Positions 16,127 through 32,039 of a stretch of 64,000 bases of DNA are shown here, in pieces. The position numbers and the translations under genes are program-made. Under the pieces are notes generated by a model, which worked only from the letters and a program-made list of their open reading frames with translations, was not told the DNA's origin and searched no databases. The stretch comes from Chloroflexota bacterium. GTDB taxonomy: Bacteria; Chloroflexota; UBA11872; VXOZ01. The stretch spans positions 448,001-512,000 of the forward strand of contig CAXXVD010000005.1 of assembly GCA_963662335.2 (NCBI GenBank), read 5' to 3'. Every line of letters begins with the position of its first letter. Positions within the stretch are counted from its first letter, which is position 1.

Positions 16127-17056
16127 ATGGCTCGCCTGGCAAACGTTGCGGTCTGCTCCACGCCAAATACGGTTCTTGGCGAGAGCGACGAAGAGCGTTA
16201 CGAATTCAACCTGAGTAAAGCGGAGGAACTGCTCCACGAGGCCGCCGCGCAAGGGGCGGACATCGCCTGCCTACCCGAGGCGTTTCCCGTGCGCGGCATC
16301 GCATCCGGCGGCACTGACGAACGCTGGTACGAGCCCGTGCCCGGCGGCGAGACCTACCGGCGCATGGCGGCGGTGGCGCGGCAGCGCGGCATGTACGTCG
16401 TGGCGCCCATTCTCGGCATGGAAGACGGCCGGCGCCGCAACGTGGCCATGGTCATCGACCGCAACGGCGAGTACGTCGGCGGCTACAACAAGGTCCATAT
16501 CACGGTCACAGAGGATGAAGCGTGGGGCATCACCCCCGGCGACTCCTGGCCGGTTTTCGACCTGGACTTCGGCAAGATCGGCGTCACCATCTGCTACGAC
16601 GTCTTCTTCCCGGAGGGCTACCGCATCCTCGCACTCAAGGGCGCGGACGTCATCTACCATCCCACCATGTACAGCATGTACGGCGAGGTGGGCTGGGAGG
16701 CCGTCATACAGTCCCGCGCAATCGACAACTGCCTCTACGTCTGTCCGGTGAACTACGGCTTCACCGACCATGAGCCCTGGATGCCGGGCATGTGCCTGAA
16801 TCGCAGCAGCGTGATTGGGCCGGACGGAATCTCCCTGGCCGACCGCGGCCGCTACTGGGGCGTGGCCATGGCCGCGCTCGACCTCGACCGCCCCCGCATG
16901 GTCTACCGGGGCGGCTCGACGGGCCTCGCCAGTTTCCGTGAAGACGCCTGGAACCACCGCCGGCCGGATACCTACCGGGAACTCTTGGACTACGGATATT
17001 GGGTAGACGGTCAGGGCCGGCAGGCGGCTGCGCAACCGGCTGAGGTAGAGGCCTAG
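16127..17056 (+). CDS. Carbon-nitrogen hydrolase (nitrilase superfamily)
   Basis: Glu-Lys-Cys triad in CLPE, YNKVH, ICYD. Confidence 0.92.
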   Translation: MARLANVAVCSTPNTVLGESDEERYEFNLSKAEELLHEAAAQGADIACLPEAFPVRGIASGGTDERWYEPVPGGETYRRMAAVARQRGMYVVAPILGMEDGRRRNVAMVIDRNGEYVGGYNKVHITVTEDEAWGITPGDSWPVFDLDFGKIGVTICYDVFFPEGYRILALKGADVIYHPTMYSMYGEVGWEAVIQSRAIDNCLYVCPVNYGFTDHEPWMPGMCLNRSSVIGPDGISLADRGRYWGVAMAALDLDRPRMVYRGGSTGLASFREDAWNHRRPDTYRELLDYGYWVDGQGRQAAAQPAEVEA

Positions 17057-17156
17057 GTTCCCCGACTCGCCACCAGAACACCTGGGCTCGGTCGATGTAC
17101 TCTTGCCAGCGCGAGAGCGAGCCCCGCTGAAAAGCCGTAGCGCGAGGGCTTCTCCC

Positions 17157-17318
17157 CAATGGTGTCGCATTAACGTAGCGCGGGGGCTTGTCCACCGCCG
17201 GAGCAATTGAAACTGACACGTAAAGGATTGCCCTAACAGCTTCGCAGGTTACAAACCTGCGCTACCGGGGAATTTGGACGCGAGTTTTGCCGCCGTGCTG
17301 TTTAATGCGACAGCATTA
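17157..17318. mobile_element. Putative 162-bp MITE with IS4-like ends inserted in a REP
   Basis: Ends CAATGGTGTCGCATTAA / TTAATGCGACAGCATTA (15/17 inverted match); flanked by GGGCTTCTCCC (17146-17156) and GGGCTTGTCCC (17319-17329). Confidence 0.55.
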
Positions 17319-17448
17319 GGGCTTGTCCCCCGCCTCTTAACGAGTGTGGCAAAGACCGTCTAAGGTTATGAGATCCGATCCCTCTTGTCGCGGCGGTTCA
17401 CAGCTGATGCCGCAGATGTAGCAATCTTTCTTGAAAGGAGACAGTCGC

Positions 17449-18117
17449 ATGCTCATCGACACCGACGATTTCGTCACACAGCGCATCGCTGCGGACGAAA
17501 CGCTTGAACCGGAGAAGACCGCACTCATCATCATCGACATGATGAACCGCTTCTGCAATCCGGTGTGGCTGGCGCAGGGCGACCACCAAAGAGCCGAGTG
17601 GTTCGCGCGCGAGCTTGATTGCGTGATACCCAACGTCACCGACGCGCTCCACACGTTTCGCGCGGCCGGCGCGCTTATCGTCCACGCCGTCTGCGCCCGG
17701 TGGACGCTGGACAAACGCGACGCCCCGCTGCACATGCGCGCACGAGACTATGACCTCTTCGATACTCCCGCCATGTCGGTGATCGACCAGTTAGCGCCCC
17801 TGCCCGGCGAAATCCTGATCCGCAAGACAACCGGCTCCGTCTTTACCGGCACGGGCCTGGAATACCTGCTGCGCCAAGCCGGCATCGAAAACGTGGCGCT
17901 CTGCGGCCAGTACGGCAGCGCCTGCGTCTTCTACTCCCTGATACAAAGCCGGGAATTCGGCTTCAAAAAGCGGCTCTGGCTGGAGGACTGCATCCTCTAT
18001 GGCAGTGAAACGAGTAAGCACCTCTTCCCCGCCCTGGTCGGCCAGCATTGGGCCACATTGGCAAACCGGGAAGAGGTAAGCCGCGCGCTCGCGCCGGTCG
18101 CCGCAGCAGCCGGCTAA
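17449..18117 (+). CDS. Isochorismatase-family cysteine hydrolase
   Basis: IIDMMN (Asp), IRKTT (Lys), SACV (Cys); AGGAG RBS. Confidence 0.9.
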   Translation: MLIDTDDFVTQRIAADETLEPEKTALIIIDMMNRFCNPVWLAQGDHQRAEWFARELDCVIPNVTDALHTFRAAGALIVHAVCARWTLDKRDAPLHMRARDYDLFDTPAMSVIDQLAPLPGEILIRKTTGSVFTGTGLEYLLRQAGIENVALCGQYGSACVFYSLIQSREFGFKKRLWLEDCILYGSETSKHLFPALVGQHWATLANREEVSRALAPVAAAAG

Positions 18118-19135
18118 GCAAGGCAGGAACGGAGAAAGAGCTACCGGTGGATTCACACTGCAAGTGCAACACCTGTTTCAAGAACACTTCGGTTGGCGTT
18201 TGAAAGTCAAGACACTTGCGCGGGGTGTGGTTATAGGCCTGCACCAGTTGCGCAAAGCGGTCTGCGGAGACCGTCGCCAGGTCGGTCTTGCGGGGCAGCA
18301 CCCGCCGCAGGCGCCCGATGGCGTTTTCGACGCCTCCTTTCTGCCAGGGGGCGCGCGTGTCGCAGAAGAAGGTTTGTACGCCCAAGTCGTGGAGGCGGTA
18401 ATGGCGAGCGAACTCGGTGCCGTTGTCGAAAGTGGCGGTCTGCCGCCAGTCCGGCGGAACCAGCGCCAGCAGGTCGCGCATGGCGCTGGCGATCGGCTCT
18501 GCGGCCTTGCCGTTGGTGCGGGTGGCCAGCAGCAGGCGCGAATGGCGCTCGTGCAGGGTCAAGACCGCTTGACCGCCTCTGCCAAAGAGCATCAGGTCTA
18601 CCTCCCAGTGACCGGGTGTTTGCCGGTCCGCCGCCGCCGCGGGGCGCTCTGCCAAGGGCCGCCGGTGCGCGATGAACGAGGCCGGACTGCGTCTGCTGCG
18701 CTTGCGCCGCCGCCGCGCCGTCCGCCCCTGGGGCAGCAGGTCTGCCCACGAGTAGTCCTTGGTGCGCGCAATCTGCCCGTAGATGAAGCGATAGATGCTC
18801 TCGTGAGAGATCACCGGCGCGCACCTGTCATGCGCCAAGCGCCCCGACACTTCCTCCGGCGACCACCCCAATGCCAAGCGCTCCAGCACATCCTCCCGCA
18901 ATTCCGCGTCTCGCTCCAGCCGCATGCCGCGACAGCGACGTGCTTCGGCCTGCTCCTGCGCATACTCCGCTTGATACCCTGCTTGCCGCGAACTGTTGCG
19001 TTTTACCTCCCGCGAAATCGTCGACGGCGAGCGACCAAGAGCTGTAGCGATTTTGGCTTGCGTGAGTCTCGCGGCCTGAAGTCCGGCCAACTGACACCGC
19101 TCTGCATACGTGAATTGTGTGTATGATCTTCCCAT
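17963..19135 (-). CDS. IS30-family DDE transposase (reading frame runs past the IS end)
   Basis: HTH LGRSPSTISREVKRN, SHESIY, GHWEVD, TFDNGTEF, PWQKGGVEN, NHTPRKCL. Confidence 0.93.
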   Translation of the reverse strand: MGRSYTQFTYAERCQLAGLQAARLTQAKIATALGRSPSTISREVKRNSSRQAGYQAEYAQEQAEARRCRGMRLERDAELREDVLERLALGWSPEEVSGRLAHDRCAPVISHESIYRFIYGQIARTKDYSWADLLPQGRTARRRRKRSRRSPASFIAHRRPLAERPAAAADRQTPGHWEVDLMLFGRGGQAVLTLHERHSRLLLATRTNGKAAEPIASAMRDLLALVPPDWRQTATFDNGTEFARHYRLHDLGVQTFFCDTRAPWQKGGVENAIGRLRRVLPRKTDLATVSADRFAQLVQAYNHTPRKCLDFQTPTEVFLKQVLHLQCESTGSSFSVPALLSRLLRRPARARGLPLPGLPMWPNAGRPGRGRGAYSFHCHRGCSPPARAAF

Positions 19136-19179
19136 GGCAACACCTTAGCATGATGTTGCACTTCACCTGTGAGTCTACC
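18146..19179 (-). mobile_element. IS30-family insertion sequence, 1034 bp
   Basis: 26-bp imperfect TIRs GGTGGATTCACACTGCAAGTGCAACA (18146-18171) and TGTTGCACTTCACCTGTGAGTCTACC (19154-19179), 20/26 match; 3-bp duplication ACC at 18143-18145 and 19180-19182. Confidence 0.93.
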
Positions 19180-19237
19180 ACCCTCTTGTGGCAGGACTGC
19201 CGCGAAACGATCAAGTGAACGAAAGGAGTTACCAGCA

Positions 19238-19906
19238 ATGGAACAAGCGTCTCAGTCTGAGGAGAAGATTTGGTCGCCAAGAATCTGTGAGTCGAAAATT
19301 CGAAAGGTCGGGTGCGAACCGTTTCACGTGGGCGACAAGAATGTCGAATTCACTATCCGCGACTACTGGCGCTGGGCACACTCCGACTTGTTGGATAACA
19401 CCGCACGAGGCGTTCTAGCTGAGTTCCTGGTCGCCTATGCGCTCAGGCAAACGAATAAGCTTCGTCGTGAGTGGGGCGCGTTCGACCTCAGAACCAAGAG
19501 CGGACATAGAGTAGAGATAAAGAGCGCAGCCTACGCCCAGAGTTGGCCACAGCGCAAGCCGTCAAAGATCAACTTCGATATCGCTCCTCGATCGGAAATG
19601 TGGGATCCAGAGACGAACACTTACTGCCAATTCTGCACACCCAAGCGTGTCGCGGACGTCTATGTCTTCTGCCTACTCGGCCAGTGCGACGGCCCCTATC
19701 CAGACCCCATGGACATAAGACAGTGGAAGTTTTACGTGCTCGCCAAGGAGGCATTGGACAAGAAGTCCATGAGTCAAAAGAAGATTGCTCTCAATCCGCT
19801 CAAGGCACTCGTGCGACGGCCGACAAAAGGGGGCGCGACCACGTTCGATGAGTTAGCGTGCGTCATCGAGGACGTGTCAAACGAAATATCGCCAACCAAG
19901 CCCTAG
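19238..19906 (+). CDS. Hypothetical protein, putative PD-(D/E)xK nuclease fold
   Basis: RGVLAEFLV...FDLRTKSGHRVEIKS fits E...D-x(8-10)-ExK; AGGAG RBS; visibly lower GC than neighbours. Confidence 0.62.
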   Translation: MEQASQSEEKIWSPRICESKIRKVGCEPFHVGDKNVEFTIRDYWRWAHSDLLDNTARGVLAEFLVAYALRQTNKLRREWGAFDLRTKSGHRVEIKSAAYAQSWPQRKPSKINFDIAPRSEMWDPETNTYCQFCTPKRVADVYVFCLLGQCDGPYPDPMDIRQWKFYVLAKEALDKKSMSQKKIALNPLKALVRRPTKGGATTFDELACVIEDVSNEISPTKP

Positions 19907-20091
19907 GCCTTGGTTGACCGTCAAGTTCGCTTGCAACCTTTCGCACGGCCACAGACACCCGCTGAAGAGAGGGTGTAGAGAGGGTGCAGTAACTGACAAT
20001 ACCAAGCGATTCCAAGAGTCAGCCAGATATTTGGTGCAACTACATTTGCATCCCTATACCGCACTTGAGCTGAAACACCTTATGCCAGTAA

Positions 20092-20124
20092 CCGTTCATC
20101 CTTCGACAGGCTCAGGACGAACGG
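20092..20124 (+). repeat. REP-like element (CCGTTC..CCTTCGACAGGCTCAGG.CGAACGG family)
   Basis: Same core at 35291-35378, 41873-42050, 43511-43638, 57431-57455 and 59138-59240. Confidence 0.85.
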
Positions 20125-20145
20125 CTACTGGCTCACCTCACGTTC

Positions 20146-20475
20146 TTACTTCCACTCGTCGTCCGACGGCCAGATATTGGAACTCCCCGCGCCCGCGCCG
20201 GCTCCCGGCGGCCGCTCCTCCATCCAGTCCTTGACCGTATCCCGCCACGTGATGAAGTGGGGCGTCTGCAGGTGCGCCTGGAACGCCGCCTCGTCCACGT
20301 AGACCTCGTAGAGCCAGATGCGGTTCGGGTCGCCGCCGTCCTGGACCACGTCGAACCGCAGGCAACCGGGCTCGTCGTTCACCGAGCCCTTCGCGTCACC
20401 CAGCATCGCCTCGATGAAGGCGTCCTTGTAGCCTTCCTTGATCTGTATCGGCGCGACGATGATGTACATGCTCAT
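20146..20475 (-). CDS. Putative quinol monooxygenase (ABM/LsrG-like)
   Basis: EPGCLRFDV, LYEVY, AHLQTPHF motifs. Confidence 0.9.
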   Translation of the reverse strand: MSMYIIVAPIQIKEGYKDAFIEAMLGDAKGSVNDEPGCLRFDVVQDGGDPNRIWLYEVYVDEAAFQAHLQTPHFITWRDTVKDWMEERPPGAGAGAGSSNIWPSDDEWK

Positions 20476-20580
20476 GCCTCCTTATGTAATCTACTCGCTT
20501 GGTCCCGCTGGCCGCAACTACGCCCATGATACCGCTTGCCGCGTGCCGCGTTCAAAGGCGAGTGGATTGCGGCCAAGTCT

Positions 20581-20609
20581 TTGACAACCGGCGTTTGCCG
20601 TACTAGAGT
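20581..20609 (+). promoter_or_regulatory. Sigma70-type promoter
   Basis: TTGACA-17 nt-TAGAGT upstream of the gene at 20728. Confidence 0.6.
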
Positions 20610-20727
20610 CATAGCAATTCCGCTTTACGTCCAAAGCAACCTAACAGCCAACGCTTGCGCGCAGGACAAGAGACTTAGTTTTGCCAGCCACGCCATTCTA
20701 CGGCACTAGAGGAGGTCACGATTCACC

Positions 20728-22110
20728 ATGATACGACTCACCGACGAGCAGATGCGCGACTTCATCCGCAACGGGTACGTCGCGGTCAAGACCGGGCATC
20801 CCCGTGAGTTCCATCAGGATGTCTGGAACCAGACGGAGGCCCTCTTCGAGGAGGACGGCAATCCCGGCAACAACCTGATGGCCAGGATTCCCGCCATCCG
20901 CCAGATCCTCGACGATCCGGCCGTGGACGGCGCGCTGGCCGGCGTGCTGGGCAACAATTACTTCGTTCACCCGCACCGCCACTGCCATTACCGGCCGCCC
21001 CACAGCGAGGGGCAGCAGATACACCGGGATTCCTTCACCCGGCGGCGGCACCGCACCCGCTGGCTCTTGGCGATGTACTATCCCCAAGATACGACGGTCG
21101 AGATGGGCCCCACCGGTGTGCTGCCGGGCACGCACTACTACAACTGGCTGGTAGGCCCGATCGGCTGCAACATGCGGCTGGACACCACCGAGGGCGAGGT
21201 GCCGGTGGTGGTGGAGGCCGGCACGGTATTGATGGTGCACTACGACCTCTGGCACCGGGGCATGGGCAACACCACCGGCAAGAAGCGCTACATGATGAAG
21301 TTCATGTTCGCCCGCATCGAAGAGCCGCGGGAACCGAGTTGGGATAGCCAGGACAGCGCGTGGGCCGACGATGACGAGAGCGCGCTCAACGGCGTCTGGA
21401 GCCACACGTGGCGCTGGTACACGGGCGCGGCCAACAACGGCGCGCCGTCCGCCAACGGCAACGGCTCCATACCGGAGTTGATCGCCAACATCAAGGTGGA
21501 CGACGAGACTACCTGCCTGGCGTCCGCCTACCAATTGGGCTCGCTGGGCGAGGCGGCCATTCCCGCGTTGATCGACACGCTCCAGCACGAAAACGAAGCC
21601 GTGCGCCGCAACGCCAGTTACGCCCTCAGCACTATTGGCGCCGCCGCCGTGCCCGCCTTGCTGGACGCCAGCCGGGACGCAAACGAGGGGACGCGCAGCA
21701 TGGCGGTGGAGACTCTGGCCGACCTCGGCTTTCTCGGCAATGAGGTCATGCCGTATCTCCGCGTGGCGCTGGAGGATGACTCGATCGAGGTGCGCCGCCA
21801 CGTCGTGGACGCGCTCGGCATCTGCCTGCAGCATTCCGACAATGGCGTGCCGGCCCTGATCGATGCGCTTAGCGATGAGGATGAGTTCATGCGGCGCGGC
21901 GCGGCCCTGGCGCTCTCACGCATTGGCGCGCCGGCGGCGGAAGCCACACCCGCCCTGGCCCATGCCCTAAACGACGAGAACCGCTACGTGCGCGGCAAGG
22001 CCGTCCACGCGCTCCAGCGCATCGGCACGCCGGAGGCCCAGGACGCCCTGGTGCACTTCCTGCTGACCTCCCAGTGGTGCTATTCCACCAACAAGGACAG
22101 CCTGTACTAG
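20728..22110 (+). CDS. Phytanoyl-CoA dioxygenase-like (PhyH) domain fused to HEAT/PBS-lyase repeats
   Basis: QMRDFIRNGYV, IHRD and HYDLWHRG (HxD...H); C-half repeats of the type AIPALIDTLQHENEAVRRNASYALSTIG. Confidence 0.88.
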   Translation: MIRLTDEQMRDFIRNGYVAVKTGHPREFHQDVWNQTEALFEEDGNPGNNLMARIPAIRQILDDPAVDGALAGVLGNNYFVHPHRHCHYRPPHSEGQQIHRDSFTRRRHRTRWLLAMYYPQDTTVEMGPTGVLPGTHYYNWLVGPIGCNMRLDTTEGEVPVVVEAGTVLMVHYDLWHRGMGNTTGKKRYMMKFMFARIEEPREPSWDSQDSAWADDDESALNGVWSHTWRWYTGAANNGAPSANGNGSIPELIANIKVDDETTCLASAYQLGSLGEAAIPALIDTLQHENEAVRRNASYALSTIGAAAVPALLDASRDANEGTRSMAVETLADLGFLGNEVMPYLRVALEDDSIEVRRHVVDALGICLQHSDNGVPALIDALSDEDEFMRRGAALALSRIGAPAAEATPALAHALNDENRYVRGKAVHALQRIGTPEAQDALVHFLLTSQWCYSTNKDSLY

Positions 22111-22157
22111 GCGCTGGACCGTACCGCCGGTATGGTCCCCAATGATGGTTCACTAAT

Positions 22158-22211
22158 GTAGCGCGGGGGCTTGTCCTCCGCCGCGCGGCGGAGGACAAGC
22201 CCCCGCGCTAC
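22158..22211. repeat. Inverted doublet of GTAGCGCGGGGGCTTGTCC REP-like element
   Basis: GTAGCGCGGGGGCTTGTCCTCCGCCG..CGGCGGAGGACAAGCCCCCGCGCTAC between convergent genes. Confidence 0.9.
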
Positions 22212-22266
22212 GGCCTTTCAGCAGCGCCTTCGATTCCCTCTCCCTGGCTGACAGGGGTAGGCACTT

Positions 22267-22358
22267 GTCATTCCGAGCGGAGCGAGGAATCTAAAGATGC
22301 TAGATTTGCATGGCGGTGCTCTAGATTCCTCTCTCCGCTGCGCTCCGTTCGGAATGAC
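22267..22358. repeat. GTCATTCCGAGCG.AGCGAGGAATCT inverted doublet
   Basis: Six doublets of this family in the window (22267, 27214, 45033, 50691, 52247, 59436). Confidence 0.9.
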
Positions 22359-22446
22359 GAGTGAAGTCCGCTATTGAATGCATACCCACTTCAGTTCTCC
22401 CTTTGGGAGAGAGTTCGGGTGAGGGAAGACGCGGCGCCCGCAGCGC

Positions 22447-22881
22447 CTACGAACGGCCGCCCTCCTGCCAGAAGCGCCGTCCGATTAAGAGCGTAAGCAC
22501 CACCAAGAGCGCGTCCACGATGGGAAAATAGATGACGTGGGACGTAACCGCGTCGCCGGTTTCGCTTTCGATGTTGAGGCTCCAGAACCACTCCCAATAG
22601 AAGAGCATCGCCAGGACGATTGAGCCGTAGAAGGCAAGGCTCACGCGCAGATGCTCGATGGTGTTAGAGTCGCCCGCCTCCCGCGCGGCATGGTCGCGCC
22701 GCATCAGTAAACCCTTCACCAGCATGATCAGCGTAGCCAACGCCATGGGGTAATTGAGGACTCTCCATACCGGATAGTCCAGAGACCCGTCGTGGTAGAG
22801 CGGCGTCGCAATCAGGTTGGCCCATGCCAGGAACCCGACGGCCATGAGAAAGACGGCCAAGACCCGATGCGCCAGTGCCAT
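22447..22881 (-). CDS. Hypothetical 4-TM membrane protein
   Basis: Four hydrophobic segments; AGGAGG RBS upstream. Confidence 0.75.
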   Translation of the reverse strand: MALAHRVLAVFLMAVGFLAWANLIATPLYHDGSLDYPVWRVLNYPMALATLIMLVKGLLMRRDHAAREAGDSNTIEHLRVSLAFYGSIVLAMLFYWEWFWSLNIESETGDAVTSHVIYFPIVDALLVVLTLLIGRRFWQEGGRS

Positions 22882-22929
22882 TGTGCTTTTCCTCCTAGCT
22901 GGGCTGCCGCCGGATATTCCAGCGTCTCT

Positions 22930-24321
22930 CTAAACGGCCACCCCGCTTGCCAGACGCACTTCGCTCTCCAGGAACAGCGTGCCCTGCTGCCGCTGCCGCG
23001 CGGAGAGTTGGCCCCGCGGATCGCAGACCACCACCAGGCGCTCCGTGCCTTCGGGTATGCGGACGAGCACGTCGCACGCCGCCTGCTCGCGCCCGATCAC
23101 CGTGGGAACCAGCGCGTGGCCGATTTGCACGCCGCCGCCCGCGTCCAACGGCCCATCGAAGACCATCACCGCCACGTCGTGGGCGTCCGCCACGCCCCGG
23201 TTAGCCAGCGTCACCCGCGCGCGTCCAAGTCCCCGGTCTAATTCCGATATTTCAACATCAGCGATCTCCAGGTCGCACTCCACCCGTGCCACGGAGACGG
23301 CGGCGTGAGCGTCGATGAGGCCGTGGCCGAGAAACGGATTCCAGCCCGCGCCGCCCGGCTGATGGGCCGTATTGCGCAGCGCCATGCGCACCTCATCCGC
23401 GGTCAAGCCCGGCTGCCGCGACCACACGAGCGCCGCCAGGCCGGACACGTGTGGTATCGCCATGCAGCCGCCGGACCACTCCGCGTAGCCGCCGTGCTCG
23501 GCTGAAATCGTGCTCAGCACGCCATATTCGGCTTGGGGGTGCTCCCCGAGCGCCGCCGCCATCACGCGCTCCTCCGCCAAAGGCAGGATGCGCCGGGAAG
23601 GATCATTGGCGAGGTCGTAGTCGCGCCAGCCGGACGGCGCCGCCACTTCAGTCAAGTCGCCGTAGTCGCTGAAGTCGGCCATGCGCCCGCTCCTGTCGGC
23701 GGAGGCCACGTTGACCACGCCCGGACAGAGCGCCGGGTACTTGGCCACGTTGTGGGCCTGGTTGCCGCCGGTGGCGTTAACGATTAGCACGTTGTGCCGC
23801 TGGGCATAGCGACACGCCTCCGGCAGGTCTTCCGCATCCGGCGGCGTCCAGGCGCTGTAGAGCGTGGGCAGGCCATGCTTGATGGTGTACATGTAGCCCA
23901 CGTCGCTCAGGTTGATCACCCGCGCGCCCTCGTCCACCGCAAAGCGGATTGCCCGCGCCAGTTCCCGGTCGTCGTAGGTGTTCGCGCGCACCGGCAGGAT
24001 GCGGCACTCCGGCGCGACGCCGGCAATGCCGATGCCGTTGTCCGCCCGCGCCGCAATGATGCCGCAGACGTGCGTGCCGTGGTCGGTGGAGTCCTTGTGC
24101 GTGCGGGGCCGCGACGTGTCGTCGAGCGTATCGTCATCGTCCCACAGGTCCCAGCCCGGCAGAAACTGTCCCGCCAGGTCCGGGTGCCCCACGTCGATGC
24201 CCTTCTCGATGACGGCCACCACCACGTCGGGACTGCCGCGCGTAATCTCCCAGGCCTGGGGCGCATCGATGAGGTGTAGCCCCCACTGCTGTTCAAATAG
24301 GGGGTCATTCACAGGCGTCAT
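22930..24321 (-). CDS. S8/subtilase-family protein with non-canonical Glu-His-Cys triad and C-terminal CARDB-like Ig domain
   Basis: PVNDPLFEQQW, VAVIEKGID, DHGTHVCGIIAA, GIAGVAP, VINLS, WSGGCMAIPHVSGLAAL, GHGLIDA; C-terminal DLEI...VTLANRG...VVCDP. Alternative start 24339. Confidence 0.9.
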   Translation of the reverse strand: MTPVNDPLFEQQWGLHLIDAPQAWEITRGSPDVVVAVIEKGIDVGHPDLAGQFLPGWDLWDDDDTLDDTSRPRTHKDSTDHGTHVCGIIAARADNGIGIAGVAPECRILPVRANTYDDRELARAIRFAVDEGARVINLSDVGYMYTIKHGLPTLYSAWTPPDAEDLPEACRYAQRHNVLIVNATGGNQAHNVAKYPALCPGVVNVASADRSGRMADFSDYGDLTEVAAPSGWRDYDLANDPSRRILPLAEERVMAAALGEHPQAEYGVLSTISAEHGGYAEWSGGCMAIPHVSGLAALVWSRQPGLTADEVRMALRNTAHQPGGAGWNPFLGHGLIDAHAAVSVARVECDLEIADVEISELDRGLGRARVTLANRGVADAHDVAVMVFDGPLDAGGGVQIGHALVPTVIGREQAACDVLVRIPEGTERLVVVCDPRGQLSARQRQQGTLFLESEVRLASGVAV

Positions 24322-24458
24322 GGCGGTATTCCTCTTCATTTGCAGGCGACGGCTTCTCTTCCAGCGAATCTCGCTGGCCTCGCAAGGCTAGGCGTGCCCT
24401 CACTATGGCCTGTGCAAGAGAGCGCGTCAATCCACGCACTCGAGTCTCGTGGCTCCAC

Positions 24459-24650: not shown

Positions 24651-26096
24651 ATGCCATTTACTCGTAATCGCATGACGCGACGCCACATGCTGGCGGGTAC
24701 CGGCGGGGTGCTGGGCGCGCTCGCGCTGGCGGCCTGCGGCACGGCCATGCCGACGGGAGACGGCGACGCGCCGGCGGCGGAGGAAGAAGCGGCGCCCAAG
24801 GCCGAAGAACAGAAACCCATGGAGAAGGTCACGGTTTCCGTTAGGTGGATCTCCAACGACCTTACCCTGGTTGAGCCTTTCTACGAGAATCTCGTTGTGG
24901 CGCGATTCTACGAGAACTACGACAACATCGAGCTTGACTGGGTGGGCGACACCTACCGCGACACCATGAGCCAACTCAATACCCAGTTGGCCGCCGGGGA
25001 CGCGCCCGATGTCTTCCACAACGACGGTGTCTTCTTTGCGCGCAACCGCGACGTGGGCTACATTCGCTCGCTGACCGAGTACACCAAGCGCGACGGCGCT
25101 CAGCTTGAGGGCATCCGCGGCCCCGAGTTCTTCAGCGATGAGAAGCAGGACGTGTATGGCGTCTCCATGGGTGTTGGTTGCGCGGCGTTCGCCTACAACA
25201 CCGACATCTTCGACCGCTACGGCATCAACCGATTGCCGGCTGAAGGCATTGATTGGAACCCGGGCGACGGCGGCACGTTGCTGGAAATCGCTTCCGACAT
25301 TACCGCCAAGGGTCAGAACGAAGATCCCAGGATCTGGGGATGGTTCAATAACAAGCAGGCCACGTTCGACATCCTCGGCATGCTGCTCCAAAACGGCACA
25401 AATTTCCTTTCCGATGACTATCGCCGTTCGAGAGCGCACGAGGCAGAGTTCATTGACGTTATCCAGTTCCTGTGGGACTTGGAGTTCAAACATCGGGTCG
25501 CGCCAGATCCCGATGAACGCGCTGAGTTCAACGCTTCGATTCCTGAGGGCACGACGTATCATGGCCCGTTCGCCTGGCAGCGGTCAGCCATGATGAACCT
25601 CGGCCTCGGCCAGTCCGGCTCCTGGGGTTCGCCGGAACCGGAAAAACTGCCCATCGTCGCGGTACAGTACATCCAAGGTCCGGCGAACAACAAGGTGCCG
25701 GGCGGCGGACGCGTGGTCGAGATGTGGGGCAGCACCGAGGTGCCCGACGAGGCCTGGGAAGTCATGAAGTTCCCCTTGGTCGACCATGAGATTCAGGTGG
25801 GGGTCTTCTCTATCCTCCGCGACGGCTTGCCGGCCAACACCAACACGTGGGACGATGCGCGGTTGCTCGAGAAGAGCGGCCGTCCGCCGCGCGAGGTGGA
25901 AGCCTACATGGCCCCGCTCAAGGAAGGCCGCGGCCAGTACTGGCAGGTCAACGGCGTGTGGCTTGAGTGGTGGCGCGCGTTCCGTGGCAACATGAACCGC
26001 GCGTGGGCACTAGAGGTCACCGTCGAGGAAGCCATGCAGCAAGCAAGCAAAGAGTCTCAGGCTGTGCTGGACGAGTACTACGCCAGCCAGGACTAA
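24651..26096 (+). CDS. Extracellular solute-binding protein (ABC, carbohydrate family), Tat lipoprotein
   Basis: TRRHML, LAACG lipobox, LAAGDAPDVF, AYNTDIF. Confidence 0.9.
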   Translation: MPFTRNRMTRRHMLAGTGGVLGALALAACGTAMPTGDGDAPAAEEEAAPKAEEQKPMEKVTVSVRWISNDLTLVEPFYENLVVARFYENYDNIELDWVGDTYRDTMSQLNTQLAAGDAPDVFHNDGVFFARNRDVGYIRSLTEYTKRDGAQLEGIRGPEFFSDEKQDVYGVSMGVGCAAFAYNTDIFDRYGINRLPAEGIDWNPGDGGTLLEIASDITAKGQNEDPRIWGWFNNKQATFDILGMLLQNGTNFLSDDYRRSRAHEAEFIDVIQFLWDLEFKHRVAPDPDERAEFNASIPEGTTYHGPFAWQRSAMMNLGLGQSGSWGSPEPEKLPIVAVQYIQGPANNKVPGGGRVVEMWGSTEVPDEAWEVMKFPLVDHEIQVGVFSILRDGLPANTNTWDDARLLEKSGRPPREVEAYMAPLKEGRGQYWQVNGVWLEWWRAFRGNMNRAWALEVTVEEAMQQASKESQAVLDEYYASQD

Positions 26097-27390: not shown

Positions 27391-30174
27391 TCACGGCACG
27401 CGATACACCTCCGCCGCCGGCTTCACCGGACGCGGCATCCACAGCGGCCGCCGCAGCGCATCGGAACCCTCAGCCGGCCGCGCCTTCTTCAGCCACTCCA
27501 AATAGACCTCGTGGGATTTGCCGGTATCCACGAACACGTCCCCGTATTGGTCGTCGGCGCCCGCCGTCTCCACCCGCACTTTCTGGTGCCAGCAGTGCAT
27601 GCCGCTCACCGGGTCCGGGTGCACCGGAAACGTCAGGTTCTGGTGCACGCCCGATTCCTTCCACCAGATGCGCTCGGAGTCCGGGTCGTCGCTTTTGAAC
27701 GGCCCCACGCCCTCGACTTGACGCATGAACCACTGCCCCGCGCCAACACTCTTCAGGTCCACGTGCGCCGTAGACCAGCGCTCGCCGCCGCTCTCCTTGG
27801 AGAGCCGCCAGCGCCCCAGGTGGTGCGAACAGGCCACGATACCGGGCCGGATGCCCTCGGTGACCCACACGCGAATGACGAAGTAGCCGATTTCGGTATT
27901 CACGCGTGCCAGGTCGCCGGTCGCGAACGCCAGCCGTTCCGCGTCCTGCGGATGCACCCACAGCGGATTGGTGTGCGAAATCTCGTAGAGCCACTTGGCG
28001 TTGCCGGCCCGCGTGTGGATGAGCGTCGGCAGGCGGAACGTGGGCAGCAGCACGTACTCGCCCTGGCTGTGGTCGATGTTCTCCCGGTGCACGTGGCTCT
28101 TGATGTACGTTGGCACGGCGTATTCCGGCCACTTGAAGTCCCGCAGCGTATCGGAAAAGAACTCCAGCTTGCGCGAGGGCGTATGAAAGCCTTCAACCGC
28201 CGTGCCGTCCACTTCCACGCCCAGCACCTCGCCGTTCTTCCGCACCTGCTGGGTCACCGGGTCGACCTCAGCGCCCTCAAGGTCCTCGTCTGACAGCGGG
28301 TTTTCATGCACCGCGTAGGTATCGCGCTTCACCTCGAACGCGCCGTACTTGCGCATGTACGCCAGCGGCGTTAGCTCCTCAGCGGCCGCCGCTTCCGGCA
28401 GACCGGGCACGCTATTCTCGAAGATCCATTGGTAGTATTCGCTGATGGTCAGCTTCTCACCGGGGCGGTAGGGTGATTCGAAGAACTCGCGCACGCCCAG
28501 GCTGCCGTCCGGGTCGATGCGCCACGAAAGCTCGATCCAGAATTCGTCCTCTTCCCAGACCTCGCCGGGATTCGCTTCGTAGGTAAACTCGACGGCATCG
28601 CCGTTCTTCTCGCGCGCCACCCGCAGCACCGGCTGCCGGAAGGCGATCCACGCGCCCGCCTGGGTCTCCTGGCTCATGAGGTCGTGGCGCTCCGCGCCGT
28701 TGCCCATGGGCAGCACGTAGTCCGCGAACCACGCCGTCTCGCTCCACACCGGCGTCAGCGCGGCGTGCACGCCGATTTGCTCTTCGTCGCTCAGCATCTC
28801 GATCCACGACGCGCCGTCGGGATTCGTCCACACCGGGTTGTAGACGCGGGTGAAGTAGGTGTCCACCTTGCCGCGCCCCTCTTTGAGGAAGTGCGGCAGC
28901 AGAATGCTCATCTCGTGGTGCGCCAGGGGGTACTCCCGCGGCCACAGAAGCTCGCTCCACACCTGCTGCGGCGGCGGTTTGATATAGGGCGCGGGGGCGA
29001 ATTTGTTCCAACTGTTGGGGGAGGTGCCGCCGCGCGTGCCGATGCTGCCGGTCAACACGCCGAGAAACGTCAGGCAGCGCGAGACCTGCCAGCCGCCTTC
29101 ATTGCCGGAGGCCGCGCTGCGCCACACGTGGCTGGCAAAGGCCGTGCCCGCCGCGGCAATGTCGCGCGCCACCGCGACGATCTGGCCGGCGTCCACGCCG
29201 CTCTCTTGCGCCGCGAACTCCGGTGTGTAAGAGGCGTAGAATTCCTTGATAGCGGCGATGAAGTTGTCGAACGTCGCATCCGTGCCGGGATGCTCGGCGC
29301 GCATGTACTGCTGCCAGTTCAGCCACTTCTCCATGAAGTCCCGGTTGTAGCGGTCTTCCTGCAAGATGACGTTCGCCATGGCCAGCAGGATCGCCGGTTC
29401 CGAACCCGGCCAGGACGAGAGCCAGTAGTCCGCGCGCGAGGCCGTATTGGAAAGCCGGGTGTCGATGACGGCGATCTTCGCGCCGGAGAGTTTGCCCTCG
29501 ATGATGCGCTGGGCGTGGGGATTGAAGTAGTGTCCGGTCTCCAGGTGGGCGCTGATCAGCAGCATGAAGCGGGAGTTGGCGTGGTCGGGCGAGGGCCGGT
29601 CCGCGCCCTGCCAGAGCGTGTACCCCAAGCGCGCGGCGGAGGAACAGACGTTCGTATGGCTGTTGTGGCCGTCCACGCCCCAGGCCTGGAGCACCCGGTC
29701 CATATAGCCGTCGTGGCCGGGACGCCCCACGTGGTACATCACCTCCGTGCGGCGGTCTTCCTGCAAGGCCGTGCGAATGCGCGCCGCCAACGTATCGAGC
29801 ACCTCGTCCCAGGTGGTGCGTTCCCACGCGCCCGACCCGCGCGGCCCGCTGCGCTTCATGGGGTAGAGGATGCGCTCCGGGTCGTGCACCTGGTTGATGG
29901 TCGCCGGGCCTTTGGCGCAGTTGCGGCCGCGGCTGCCGGGATGCGCCGGGTTGCCCTCGAACTTGCGAATGCGCATGTCCTCTTTGTCAATATACGCCAG
30001 CAGCCCGCACGCCGCCTCGCAATTGAAGCAGACCGTCGGCACCAACATGTAGTTCTTGGAGACGCGCCGCGGCCAAGCTTCCGGATCGTACTCGGTCCAG
30101 TCGTCCCACTGGTCTACCGGCGGGTAGTTCGCCAGTTGGCCCGATTCCGGAAACTGTGGCTTGAAGATCGACAT
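27391..30174 (-). CDS. Molybdopterin-dependent oxidoreductase catalytic subunit (DMSO reductase superfamily)
   Basis: CFNCEAAC...NCAKG Fe-S motif, RILYPMKR, TTWDE, HTNVC, ADYVLP, C-terminal WVHPQDA molybdopterin dinucleotide-binding domain; no Tat signal. Confidence 0.93.
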   Translation of the reverse strand: MSIFKPQFPESGQLANYPPVDQWDDWTEYDPEAWPRRVSKNYMLVPTVCFNCEAACGLLAYIDKEDMRIRKFEGNPAHPGSRGRNCAKGPATINQVHDPERILYPMKRSGPRGSGAWERTTWDEVLDTLAARIRTALQEDRRTEVMYHVGRPGHDGYMDRVLQAWGVDGHNSHTNVCSSAARLGYTLWQGADRPSPDHANSRFMLLISAHLETGHYFNPHAQRIIEGKLSGAKIAVIDTRLSNTASRADYWLSSWPGSEPAILLAMANVILQEDRYNRDFMEKWLNWQQYMRAEHPGTDATFDNFIAAIKEFYASYTPEFAAQESGVDAGQIVAVARDIAAAGTAFASHVWRSAASGNEGGWQVSRCLTFLGVLTGSIGTRGGTSPNSWNKFAPAPYIKPPPQQVWSELLWPREYPLAHHEMSILLPHFLKEGRGKVDTYFTRVYNPVWTNPDGASWIEMLSDEEQIGVHAALTPVWSETAWFADYVLPMGNGAERHDLMSQETQAGAWIAFRQPVLRVAREKNGDAVEFTYEANPGEVWEEDEFWIELSWRIDPDGSLGVREFFESPYRPGEKLTISEYYQWIFENSVPGLPEAAAAEELTPLAYMRKYGAFEVKRDTYAVHENPLSDEDLEGAEVDPVTQQVRKNGEVLGVEVDGTAVEGFHTPSRKLEFFSDTLRDFKWPEYAVPTYIKSHVHRENIDHSQGEYVLLPTFRLPTLIHTRAGNAKWLYEISHTNPLWVHPQDAERLAFATGDLARVNTEIGYFVIRVWVTEGIRPGIVACSHHLGRWRLSKESGGERWSTAHVDLKSVGAGQWFMRQVEGVGPFKSDDPDSERIWWKESGVHQNLTFPVHPDPVSGMHCWHQKVRVETAGADDQYGDVFVDTGKSHEVYLEWLKKARPAEGSDALRRPLWMPRPVKPAAEVYRVP

Positions 30175-30257
30175 TGCGAGAAAACTCCTCTCGCTTAGCG
30201 CCTTGACATAGTTAACGTGAGACCGCTAATGCGCCCTCGATACGTGTCATGCAATTC

Positions 30258-30425
30258 GTAGCGCGGGGGCTTGTCCCCCGCCTCTCGCTCGTCCGACAGT
30301 CCCGTAGCGCGGGGGCTCGTCCCCCGCCTCTTGGCACGTCCCGCTATCCCGTAGCGCGGGGGCTTGTCCCCCGCCTCTTGGCACGTCCCGCTATCCCGTA
30401 GCGCGGGGGCTTGTCCCCCGCCTCT
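30258..30425 (+). repeat. Tandem array of four GTAGCGCGGGGGCTTGTCCCCCGCCTCT REP-like units (46-47 bp period)
   Basis: Starts 30258, 30304, 30351, 30398; the last two linkers are identical (TGGCACGTCCCGCTATCCC). Confidence 0.92.
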
Positions 30426-30437
30426 TCGCTCAATCGT

Positions 30438-32039
30438 CTAACTCAACGGCTGCGCCTGTCCCGCGCGCACCCAAATATCCTCGAAGAGCAACAGCCCCAC
30501 CAGTGCGCACGCCCCGGCCGCAACGGCCGCCACCGGCGCCAGTCCCAGCGACACCGCAATCAGCAACGCCACCGGCGCCGCGTGTCCCAGGCCAACCACG
30601 CCGACCCAGAAACGCTGAGAATACCGGCCGCGCACGATCATGTGCACCGCTTTGGCGGCGTCGCGCGTGCCGTGGGGCAGCCAGAGTTCGCCCACCCCGA
30701 TGACGAAGAGATTGGCAATCAGACTCCACAGCAGCACGGTGCGCAGGAATTCTTCCGTTTGTGCGGTGGTCTCCACGACTGTCCCCAGAATTGCCAGCGA
30801 CGCCGCGCCCGCCAACGCCGCCTGCACCAGCAGGTGCACGGGCAACGCCGGACTCAGCCACAGGTCGCGCGCTTTCGACTGCGCAAAGAGAAAACCGGTA
30901 TAGATCGCGGCCAATATCGCCAACACGCCGCCCGGCCACCAGAGAACCTGCGTCAGGCCTCCTGCGCCGGCCAGCGCGGCCAGCAGGCTCAGGCCCACCA
31001 CCACCCCAAAGAACAGCAAGATATACGTGCCAATCGCAACCCACGACCGCCACTGCGGACGAGTGAGCAGCGTGTAGAAGCGGTCCGGGCGCTTGAGGTC
31101 CCAAATCAAGAGGCCGGCCGTAATCGCCAGAAAGATCAGGGCCAGGATGGGGCCGCCCCACGCCAGCAGGGGATTCTCGCTCACCAGGCCCAGCGCCAAA
31201 CCCGCGGCCGGCAGCAGGAACGCGCCGGCGGCGATTGATTTCGTCCAAATGTACGCGCTCACCTTCCAGCCCCACGGCGACGGGTGTTCCACGTCGTAGA
31301 CCGTCTTGGCGGACTTGGCAACCAGGTCTTGCAGCAAGGTCTCGCTGTCGGCCAGGCTCGACGCCCCGTTGCCGTTGGCGCTGCCATGGCCGTTGCTGCG
31401 GCCATCGCCGTGGCCGTTACCGTTGGCGTTGGGCATCTCGTTCCAGATGCCGTATTCTTCGGCCGGCGTCGCCGCCGACGGCGTGAGCGTGCTCTCGTCG
31501 GCGTCGATGTAGAAGAGCTTCGGCACGGTGCCCTTTTCCGGTTTGCGCACCTGCACCGGCTCGCGCGAAATCAGTTGCGAAATATAGGTCGTGGGGTCGT
31601 CCAGGTCGCCCGAAACGATCGCCTGCGTCGGACAGACCACCTGGCACGACGGCTCCAGGTTCATCTCCACGCGGTGGGCGCAGAAATTGCACTTGGCGGC
31701 GGTATGGGTGTCCGGGTCGATGTGCAGCGCGTCGTACGGACACGCCTGCAAGCACATCTTGCAGCCAATGCAGCGCTCGGGATCGAAGTCTACGATGGCG
31801 TCCTGCGTGCGCCGGTACAATGCCGTGACCGGACACGCCGTGATGCAGGGCGCGTCGTCGCAGTGATTGCAGCGCAGCACGGTAAAGTGGCGGCGGTTAT
31901 TGGGGAACTGTCCCGTCTCGACGTACTTCACCCACGTGCGGTAGACGCCCAAGGGCACGTCATGCTCGGACTTGCACGCCACGGTGCAAGCATGGCAGCC
32001 AATTCACTTGCGATTGTCGATGAGAAAGCCGAATCTCAT
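30438..32039 (-). CDS. Fused 4Fe-4S (NrfC/DmsB-like) + NrfD/PsrC membrane anchor; in-frame TGA at codon 12, candidate selenoprotein
   Basis: From ATG 32039: MRFGFLIDNRK-TGA-IGCHACTVACK, then CNHCDDAPCITACP, CIGCKMCLQACP, CNFC...CQVVCP; NrfD part PWGWKVSAY, DLKRPDRF, YTGFLF. Confidence 0.9.
31961..32003 (-). promoter_or_regulatory. Candidate bacterial SECIS hairpin
   Basis: Immediately 3' of the UGA: stem GCUUGCAC/GUGCAAGU with loop CGUGGC beginning 21 nt after UGA. Confidence 0.55.

Follow-up and report, generated by a model that had tools for sequence, protein, structure and literature searches.

We show that the window, a 64,000-nucleotide stretch of DNA from a Chloroflexota bacterium (contig CAXXVD010000005.1, positions 448,001 to 512,000), encodes on its minus strand (22930..24321) a subtilase homologue, P0001, in which Glu39-His81-Asn187-Cys286 correspond to subtilisin Asp32-His64-Asn155-Ser221. 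Going by these residues, P0001 is related to the subtilases but is no serine peptidase, and it represents the Glu-His-Asn-Cys (E-H-N-C) branch of a natural group of cysteine-type subtilases whose Asp-His-Asn-Cys (D-H-N-C) branch is the larger. We propose that P0001 is a functional cytoplasmic thiol-subtilase that probably hydrolyses imported peptide or amide compounds in catabolic gene islands, and we give this statement as a whole a probability of roughly 60%.

The gene is a single open reading frame (ORF; 22930..24339 on the minus strand), 469 amino acids long when counted from the first ATG, at 24339. We prefer the start at 24321, which yields the 463-residue P0001 followed by a stop, because 12 orthologues open with M-x-(x)-VNDPLF. 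The sole family found in a Pfam scan of P0001 is Peptidase_S8 (PF00082; E 8e-45, residues 32-334), and the score of 153.8 bits against a cut-off of 21.8 places the protein among the subtilase homologues. Glu39 is assigned to the Asp32 position and Cys286 to the Ser221 position because of a HMMER alignment to thermitase (1tec; E 1.8e-37), the best relative of solved structure, which sets 'aviekgid' over 'aivdtgvq' and 'sggcmaiphv' over 'sgtsmatphv'; the HGTHV motif (His81) and the asparagine of GGN (Asn187) are retained. Measured against the Asp-His-Ser triad of MEROPS family S8, P0001 therefore differs at two members (Glu39-His81-Cys286), and the oxyanion-hole asparagine of the family is present as Asn187. 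The gene, its catalytic domain and the residues concerned lie in the window as follows.

22930..24321, minus strand: coding sequence of the putative thiol-subtilase, 463 amino acids plus stop; the in-frame upstream ATG at 24339 would add six residues.
23290..24321, minus strand: S8 catalytic domain, residues 1-344, with a mature-type N-terminus (Pfam 32-334; AF2; Foldseek).
24205..24207, minus strand: GAG, Glu39, at the catalytic Asp32 position (among 13 orthologous genes, 10 have GAG and 3 have GAA).
24079..24081, minus strand: CAC, His81, equivalent of His64 (HGTHV), in 30/30 rows of the clade alignment.
23761..23763, minus strand: AAC, Asn187, equivalent of the oxyanion-hole Asn155, in 30/30 rows of the clade alignment.
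23464..23469, minus strand: GGC-TGC, Gly285-Cys286, that is, Thr220 to Gly and Ser221 to Cys; the Cys codon (23464-23466) is TGC in 13/13 orthologous genes.
23452..23454, minus strand: CCA, Pro290, equivalent of Pro225; Pro is retained in P0001, and many relatives have Gly or Ala.

An AlphaFold2 (AF2) model built from an 85-row alignment reached a predicted local distance difference test score (pLDDT) of 90.4 and a predicted template modelling score (pTM) of 0.92. In this model, E39 ends the strand 34-39, H81 and C286 lie at the N-termini of helices 78-90 and 285-302, and all three are thus predicted to occupy the canonical triad positions; Foldseek matched the model to thermitase 1tec with E 1.1e-23 and a target template modelling score (TMt) of 0.90. 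An earlier, sequence-only reading of the window had described an S8 protein with a Glu-His-Cys triad (GAG at 24205-24207, TGC at 23464-23466) and altered S1/oxyanion segments, INLSDVG and NATGGN. The Pfam match and the thermitase alignment confirm the first description, and the two segments are as it gave them.

A word-indexed search and a HMMER search run exhaustively against 1.84 billion representatives together yielded 266 proteins, and we compared the residues in their catalytic columns after aligning each S8 domain to P0001. Thirty-three of these proteins are Cys-type: 29 full-length E-H-N-C sequences, two Cys-bearing fragments, and two more distant D-H-N-C proteins (P0029 and P0129). The sequence-only reading had proposed to inspect the closest homologues and the Cys column, and the closest homologues proved not to be D-H-S: every one of the 29 full-length close relatives, at 94-40% identity, is E-H-N-C, and the two D-H-N-C proteins share the cysteine. 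The remaining 229 proteins scored at the nucleophile column all have Ser and are nearly all Asp-His-Ser, the nearest of them carrying the labels Chloroflexi, Limnocylindria and Actinomycetota. Of 401 genomes sampled from the phylum, 13 have the gene, each as a single copy, namely its own genome, all 11 others of its genus, and one of the three genomes of a genus in another family (G398). The remaining 388 genomes of the sample yielded no copy. When the genome contigs were searched with the clade alignment, the 80 loci recovered were generic Ser-type S8 loci at 26-37% identity, with no clade member among them.

Strong purifying selection acts on the gene, which is intact. Across the 13 orthologous genes, the median nonsynonymous (dN) and synonymous (dS) divergences are 0.094 and 1.11 and the median dN/dS is 0.079 (78 pairs compared, of which 70 gave a finite dS). 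Both GAG and GAA serve as codons for the conserved Glu, and Cys is always TGC. Since the Glu and Cys changes are present in every orthologue examined, they are due neither to chance nor to error. Nothing was found in favour of the idea that an assembly or sequencing artefact, or a decaying gene, produced them; Cys and Glu each lie a single base from a Ser or Asp codon. It is refuted by the occurrence of TGC and of Glu in 13/13 independent genomes, by the intact frames and low dN/dS, and by the same residues in dozens of metagenome clusters. The proposal of the sequence-only reading that coordinated active-site changes had accumulated in an intact gene, rather than through decay, is upheld by the same dN/dS and by the conservation of the changes across relatives.

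The only other S8 match in the same genome, P0271 (446 amino acids), is also Cys-type.

G000:C1:467926-469263 (L002 1105..2445; also L143 and L160 9424..10764), minus strand: paralogue P0271, D-H-N-C, EGGCMAS.

P0271 is 32% identical to P0001 (E 2e-47), carries the motifs AVIDLG, GHHAF, TADNRG and EGGCMAS, has no signal peptide, resembles P0001 in its first insertion, and likewise ends in a beta domain. Orthologues of the two proteins co-occur in exactly the same 13 genomes of the sample, and N-termini are mostly short in both families. All of the 120 P0271 homologues listed, out of 180 at E<=0.001, have the Cys and the Asn, and their commonest motifs are GGCMA[SA]GF, with Gly or Ala at position 225; these proteins, from Armatimonadetes, Verrucomicrobia, Kiritimatiellae, Isosphaeraceae, Anaerolineae and others, are labelled 'S8 family serine peptidase'. 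In a BLAST alignment, P0271 lacks 10 residues matching RADNGIGIAG of P0001, a stretch that, on our reading of the alignment, falls at the position of the subtilisin calcium loop, 75-83.

In a maximum-likelihood tree of 62 rows and 432 columns (quick IQ-TREE), all Cys-type groups together with P0134 form one clade with a Shimodaira-Hasegawa approximate likelihood ratio test (SH-aLRT) support of 100. Within it, the E-H-N-C group (13 rows) has a support of 94, and a small D-H-N-C group (3 rows) and the paralogue group (18 rows) each have 100, while the base of the clade lacks resolution. P0134, the sole Ser member inside the Cys clade, ends early in its C-terminal domain. Where P0392, its nearest relative at 57% identity, has GQCMAAPH, P0134 reads GQSAAAPH, and it may have reverted to Ser or be in decay. 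Because this nearest relative has Cys, the simplest reading of the sequences would be one origin of Cys followed by a later reversal. Glu32, in turn, arose after Cys, as it is confined to the branch of P0001.

The nucleophile exchange is accompanied by further changes in its surroundings. Position 220 is Gly in 31 of 33 Cys-type sequences and Thr in 253 of 262 Ser-type domains, and position 33, which follows the catalytic acid, is Ser or Thr in only 2/31 Cys-type sequences compared with 249/266 Ser-type domains (Lys in P0001). At position 126, 26/31 Cys-type sequences, P0001 among them with Asp, have Asp or Asn, whereas 145 Ser-type domains have Leu. Position 225 is Gly or Ala in 12/33 Cys-type sequences (P 21, G 8, A 4) as against 24/262 Ser-type domains; among the 13 orthologues it is Pro in five (CCN), Gly in seven (GGN) and Ala in one (GCG). 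A change from Pro to Gly at this position within one genus takes two base changes, for which Ala is a possible intermediate. Thr220 contributes to the oxyanion hole of subtilisin, a textbook serine protease, and S221C subtilisin is the classic nucleophile swap, in which amidase activity was wrecked and peptide ligation enabled.

These changes parallel the ones made by engineers, and the parallel with S221C subtilisins that the sequence-only reading had drawn is stronger than it claimed, given Gly220 in 31/33 and Gly or Ala at 225 in 12/33 sequences. According to passages of PMC7921005, the acyl-enzyme of S221C subtilisin is more prone to aminolysis, P225A relieves the crowding caused by the larger thiol, the Cys221 sulfur having more space when the residue there is small, Gly or Ala at 225 gives good ratios of synthesis to hydrolysis, and the calcium loop 75-83 was deleted in the engineered calcium-independent parent of peptiligase. 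P0001 might alternatively ligate peptides, or act as a transpeptidase or acyltransferase, by a natural mechanism in which an amine rather than water resolves the thioester acyl-enzyme, as in subtiligase and peptiligase. The aminolysis favoured by S221C, the higher synthesis ratio with Gly or Ala at 225 (as those passages have it), the presence of these residues in 12/33 relatives and in the commonest P0271-family motifs, and the absence from P0271 of the 10 residues at the calcium-loop position deleted in the parent of peptiligase would all fit such an enzyme. P0001 itself argues against it by retaining Pro290: of the two hallmarks of subtiligase-like enzymes, it has Cys221 (Cys286) and lacks the small residue at 225, which is found in 8/13 orthologues. 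No activated acyl donor is evident, and the gene neighbourhoods described below point the same way, so that we consider a ligase unlikely. A wider statement, which we would call rather doubtful, is that cytoplasmic Cys-subtilases had a single ancient origin with engineer-like changes that make room for the sulfur (Gly at 220, a small residue at 225 and, in one branch, a lost calcium loop), that some or all of them may be thioester acyl-transfer enzymes (ligases, transpeptidases or cyclases), and that the Glu-His-Cys branch was tuned further.

Exchanges of Ser for Cys usually cripple hydrolases, as stated in parts of PMC6642262 and PMC7921005, and S8 pseudoproteases such as CspA and CspC are known from passages of PMC7200643. 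Together with the remodelled substrate-binding segments of P0001, this could mean that the protein is a pseudo-enzyme that keeps the fold for binding, scaffolding or redox sensing and performs no chemistry. The conservation pattern speaks otherwise. His and Asn are found in 30/30 rows, Cys in 33/33 sequences and in all 120 listed P0271 homologues, the accompanying changes adjoin the nucleophile, and dN/dS is low (0.079), whereas degenerate S8 domains in the same match list, such as P0136 and P0115, have lost several catalytic residues at once. A non-catalytic role is, in our judgement, quite improbable. We instead infer a working Cys-His-Glu enzyme, because the full catalytic set is conserved, the second shell is refitted, and purifying selection is strong.

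The location of the enzyme is suggested by its N-terminus. The stop-to-stop frame is 485 amino acids long and allows at most 22 residues ahead of M1, and therefore a signal peptide or a prodomain would not fit; nothing precedes the mature-type N-terminus (PVNDP..QW), and the genome (96% complete) holds no match to the I9 prodomain (PF05922). P0001 thus lacks both the signal peptide and the I9 folding-chaperone prodomain of a classical secreted subtilisin, in agreement with what the sequence-only reading had noted. An exported protease, leaving by a non-classical or twin-arginine translocation (Tat) route to act outside the cell, would be in keeping with the exported lipoprotein encoded by the divergent neighbour and with the twin-arginine-like leader that precedes the same mature start in one relative, P0027. 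The frame of P0001 has no space for a leader, 12 orthologues begin at the mature N-terminus, and a free catalytic thiol is generally ill-suited to an oxidising exterior; export of P0001 therefore seems very improbable. In P0027, a distant E-H-N-C member, about 60 extra N-terminal residues include the Tat-like leader SRRQFLL...ASA, and some family members may be exported in folded form.

Two insertions flank the predicted substrate cleft.

23842..23895, minus strand: insertion 1, about residues 143-160, immediately behind the segment that binds substrate, which reads SDVG in P0001 and SLG in subtilisin.
23527..23628, minus strand: insertion 2, about residues 232-265, between the 'APSG' strand and the nucleophile helix.

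The first corresponds to a 17-residue gap in thermitase, is found throughout the clade, and is modelled with a pLDDT of 72-78; the second has a pLDDT of 61-82 and a single helix at 251-257. Together with the remodelled S4-S1 walls, they suggest a substrate other than extended polypeptides.

In the mechanism we propose for the thiol-subtilase, Cys286 would act as the nucleophile, paired with His81, Glu39 would orient His81 in place of Asp, and Asn187 would serve the oxyanion hole. The site would have been refitted for the larger sulfur and a different substrate by the change of Thr220 to Gly, the loss of the Ser/Thr33 partner, the change of Leu126 to Asp or Asn, the relaxation of Pro225, and the two cleft-flanking insertions. 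The protein would fold without a prodomain and remain in the cytoplasm, whose reducing conditions a thiol nucleophile requires. The reaction would be hydrolysis of amide or peptide bonds in imported small compounds, carried out within catabolic gene islands, and candidate substrates might include acylated amino sugars and peptides that are unusual or contain D-amino acids. Muropeptides and gamma-linked peptides are further candidates, suggested like these by M14, M55, M24, deacetylase, DAO and MR_MLE genes in the neighbourhoods.

The genes around P0001 and its relatives bear on the reaction. We compared the contexts in its own genome, in the 11 other genomes of the genus, in G398, and at 35 metagenome loci of the P0271 family. 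One catabolic island is that of G398, which has its two Cys-subtilase genes 14 kb apart.

G398:C1:1451498-1452805, plus strand, and G398:C1:1466593-1467981, minus strand (L159, L107): Cys-subtilase pair.

This island also holds hydrolases (an M24 peptidase, a CN-hydrolase, two Amidohydro_2 proteins, two isochorismatases and a polysaccharide deacetylase), oxidoreductases (PhyH, DAO, a 2-hydroxyacid dehydrogenase and GFO/IDH/MocA), an ABC importer (solute-binding protein, SBP, plus permeases), and DUF3604, a DegT aminotransferase, a xylose-isomerase-like protein and a sulfotransferase. The P0271 gene is flanked on one side by an M24 gene and on the other by a polysaccharide deacetylase; two DUF3604 genes, an APH gene and an SBP gene are nearby. 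Among the 35 metagenome loci, the recurrent neighbours are URO-D-like proteins (8), polysaccharide deacetylase (6), DegT (6), DUF3604 (5) and GFO/IDH/MocA (5). In none of the neighbourhoods examined did we find peptide-biosynthesis genes, whether for precursor peptides, ATP-grasp enzymes, non-ribosomal peptide synthetases (NRPS) or ribosomally synthesised and post-translationally modified peptides (RiPP); what they contain is hydrolases, oxidoreductases and importers. As the neighbours are catabolic and not biosynthetic, we favour a hydrolase of imported compounds over a ligase. The ligase or acyltransferase role that the sequence-only reading had put forward thus finds no backing in gene context, and its interpretation is only partly supported, although its observations on the sequence hold.

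At the P0001 locus itself, the following genes adjoin the subtilase gene.

24651..26096, plus strand: SBP_bac_1 solute-binding lipoprotein (Pfam 2.1e-11), divergent from the subtilase gene.
22447..22881, minus strand: membrane-protein ORF of 144 amino acids, 48 bp downstream of the subtilase gene, with no Pfam match.

The SBP_bac_1 gene stands beside the subtilase gene in 11/11 genomes of the same genus, and in 10-11 genus genomes it is followed by a CcdA/DsbD-type gene and then by an alternative-complex-III-like cluster. In the window, positions 27391-31982 of the minus strand hold a molybdopterin-oxidoreductase-like gene of 927 amino acids and a fused FeS/NrfD-like gene of 514 amino acids, a pair that we take to be this cluster; the 927-residue protein is 91-94% conserved in 10/11 other genus loci and has no match in L106. 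On the 3' side, synteny breaks exactly at the end of the subtilase gene (window ~17000-22930 versus L102 1-9100). The other 11 genus genomes continue with a second SBP (58% identical to that of the window), which places the subtilase gene between two SBP paralogues, and then with M14 carboxypeptidase-like, glutamine-synthetase-like, DAO and sarcosine-oxidase-alpha-like genes. The window instead has the 144-residue ORF, a PhyH and HEAT fusion (20728-22110) and an IS30-like transposase (17963-19135). The 144-residue ORF (for which tblastn gave no match) and the PhyH-HEAT gene are absent from all 12 orthologous loci, and both were rejected as partners for this reason.

Several points weigh against a catabolic thiol-hydrolase. 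Engineered Ser-to-Cys subtilisins are poor amidases, as passages of PMC7921005 put it, and the competence of P0001 in amide hydrolysis is an assumption that rests on the long co-evolution of its site. Its own genome (3.23 Mb) contains 74 SBP_bac_1 and 27 DUF3604 matches, both families being greatly expanded, and with so many copies adjacency to either carries little weight. The M24 peptidase, found next to P0271 in its own genome and next to the P0001 orthologue in G398, was dropped as a general partner since it lies beside the gene in only these two genomes and at 0/35 metagenome loci. The P0271 homologues were collected by a word-indexed search, whose matches could be biased towards shared words such as GGCMA, and the residue counts given above, drawn from related sequences that are not independent, describe a clade rather than separate events. 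Finally, the Tat-like RRQFLL leader of P0027 means that the family is not strictly cytoplasmic. A suggestion of the sequence-only reading, that the adjacent SBP imports the substrate of P0001, fares poorly for similar reasons: its adjacency across the genus is trivial synteny, there are 74 matches to choose from, and SBP_bac_1 is a family of the sugar and polyamine type, not the peptide type, so that a functional link to the subtilase is weak.

Behind the catalytic domain, P0001 carries a second domain that is kept throughout the clade.

22933..23289, minus strand: C-terminal beta-sandwich, residues 345-463, Ig/CARDB-like by fold only.

The sequence-only reading had called this domain CARDB-like. 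Pfam returned no family for residues 345-463 even at E<=10, CARDB (PF07705) included, and in Foldseek the best E-values for the AF2 model of the domain, a beta-sandwich with a pLDDT of 89.5, belong to the fibronectin type III (FnIII)-like domains of glycoside hydrolase family 3 (GH3; 7.3e-5, query template modelling score, TMq, 0.50). The highest template modelling score among the listed Foldseek rows is that of a CARDB domain (3idu_B; E 7.5e-4, TMq 0.61, TMt 0.65), and in the nearest ESM Atlas clusters CARDB occurs in 15% and 86% of members. The resemblance therefore appears to hold at the level of the predicted fold, and not at that of family membership.

To our knowledge, clan SB is treated as serine-only. 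In the full-text literature searched, mostly at the level of titles and abstracts, we found engineered thiolsubtilisins and no report of natural Cys-subtilases; the passages on a 'catalytic cysteine' in PMC7200643 concern other enzymes. On residues and phylogeny, P0001 belongs to a wider, unrecognised group of natural thiol-subtilases that echoes the changes introduced by engineers of ligases. A conserved natural group of this kind, spread over several phyla, would place clan SB among the folds that can work with serine or cysteine as nucleophile and would reveal the second-shell changes that nature has paired with the swap (Gly220, Glu32 and a small residue at 225). It would also offer templates for peptide-ligase engineering that fold in the cytoplasm without a prodomain. 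The label 'S8 family serine peptidase' would be an annotation error and a trap for studies with mechanism-based inhibitors or probes.

Among known systems, thermitase and subtilisin (MEROPS S8A) share with P0001 the fold, the domain order, the mature-type N-terminus, the His64 motif, Asn155 and the Met222-Ala223 context. P0001 differs from them in its Cys nucleophile, Glu acid, Gly220, Lys33 and Asp126, in the two insertions and the added C-terminal beta-sandwich, and in lacking a signal peptide and an I9 prodomain. The intracellular subtilisin proteases (ISPs) of Bacillus are likewise S8 proteins without a signal peptide (PDB 2x8j, E 1.2e-23) and have a short inhibitory N-terminal extension; they keep Asp-His-Ser, have no C-terminal beta-sandwich, and are more distant from P0001 than thermitase is. 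The best NCBIfam match of P0001 is to the mycosins, the S8 proteases of type VII secretion (TIGR03921), at 213.2 bits, below the cut-off of 278.75, and a mycosin (4j94; 1.1e-18) is also the best PDB match of the P0271 profile. The mycosins keep the Asp-His-Ser triad and carry both a signal peptide and a membrane anchor. The PatA/PatG cyanobactin protease and macrocyclase (TIGR03895) was rejected as a relative, with 60.6 bits against a cut-off of 421 and a match limited to residues 81-222. None of the solved structures belongs to the P0001 or P0271 family.

Two further parallels come from viral and engineered enzymes. Picornavirus 3C-type proteases combine a chymotrypsin fold with Cys-His-Glu or Cys-His-Asp and are fully active in the cytoplasm. 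Like P0001, they represent a natural swap of Ser for Cys, with Glu as the third member in several cases, although their fold is unrelated (clan PA versus SB) and they process viral polyproteins; by analogy with them, amide hydrolysis by P0001 is plausible. The engineered thiolsubtilisin, subtiligase, peptiligase and omniligase, all S221C enzymes to which P225A and a calcium-loop deletion may be added, share with P0001 the subtilisin fold and Cys at 221, and share with its relatives Gly or Ala at 225 (12/33). In contrast to these enzymes, P0001 is natural, ancient and under purifying selection, retains Pro at 225, and combines Glu32 with Gly220, two residues for which we found no description in engineered enzymes, and its gene sits in a catabolic context.

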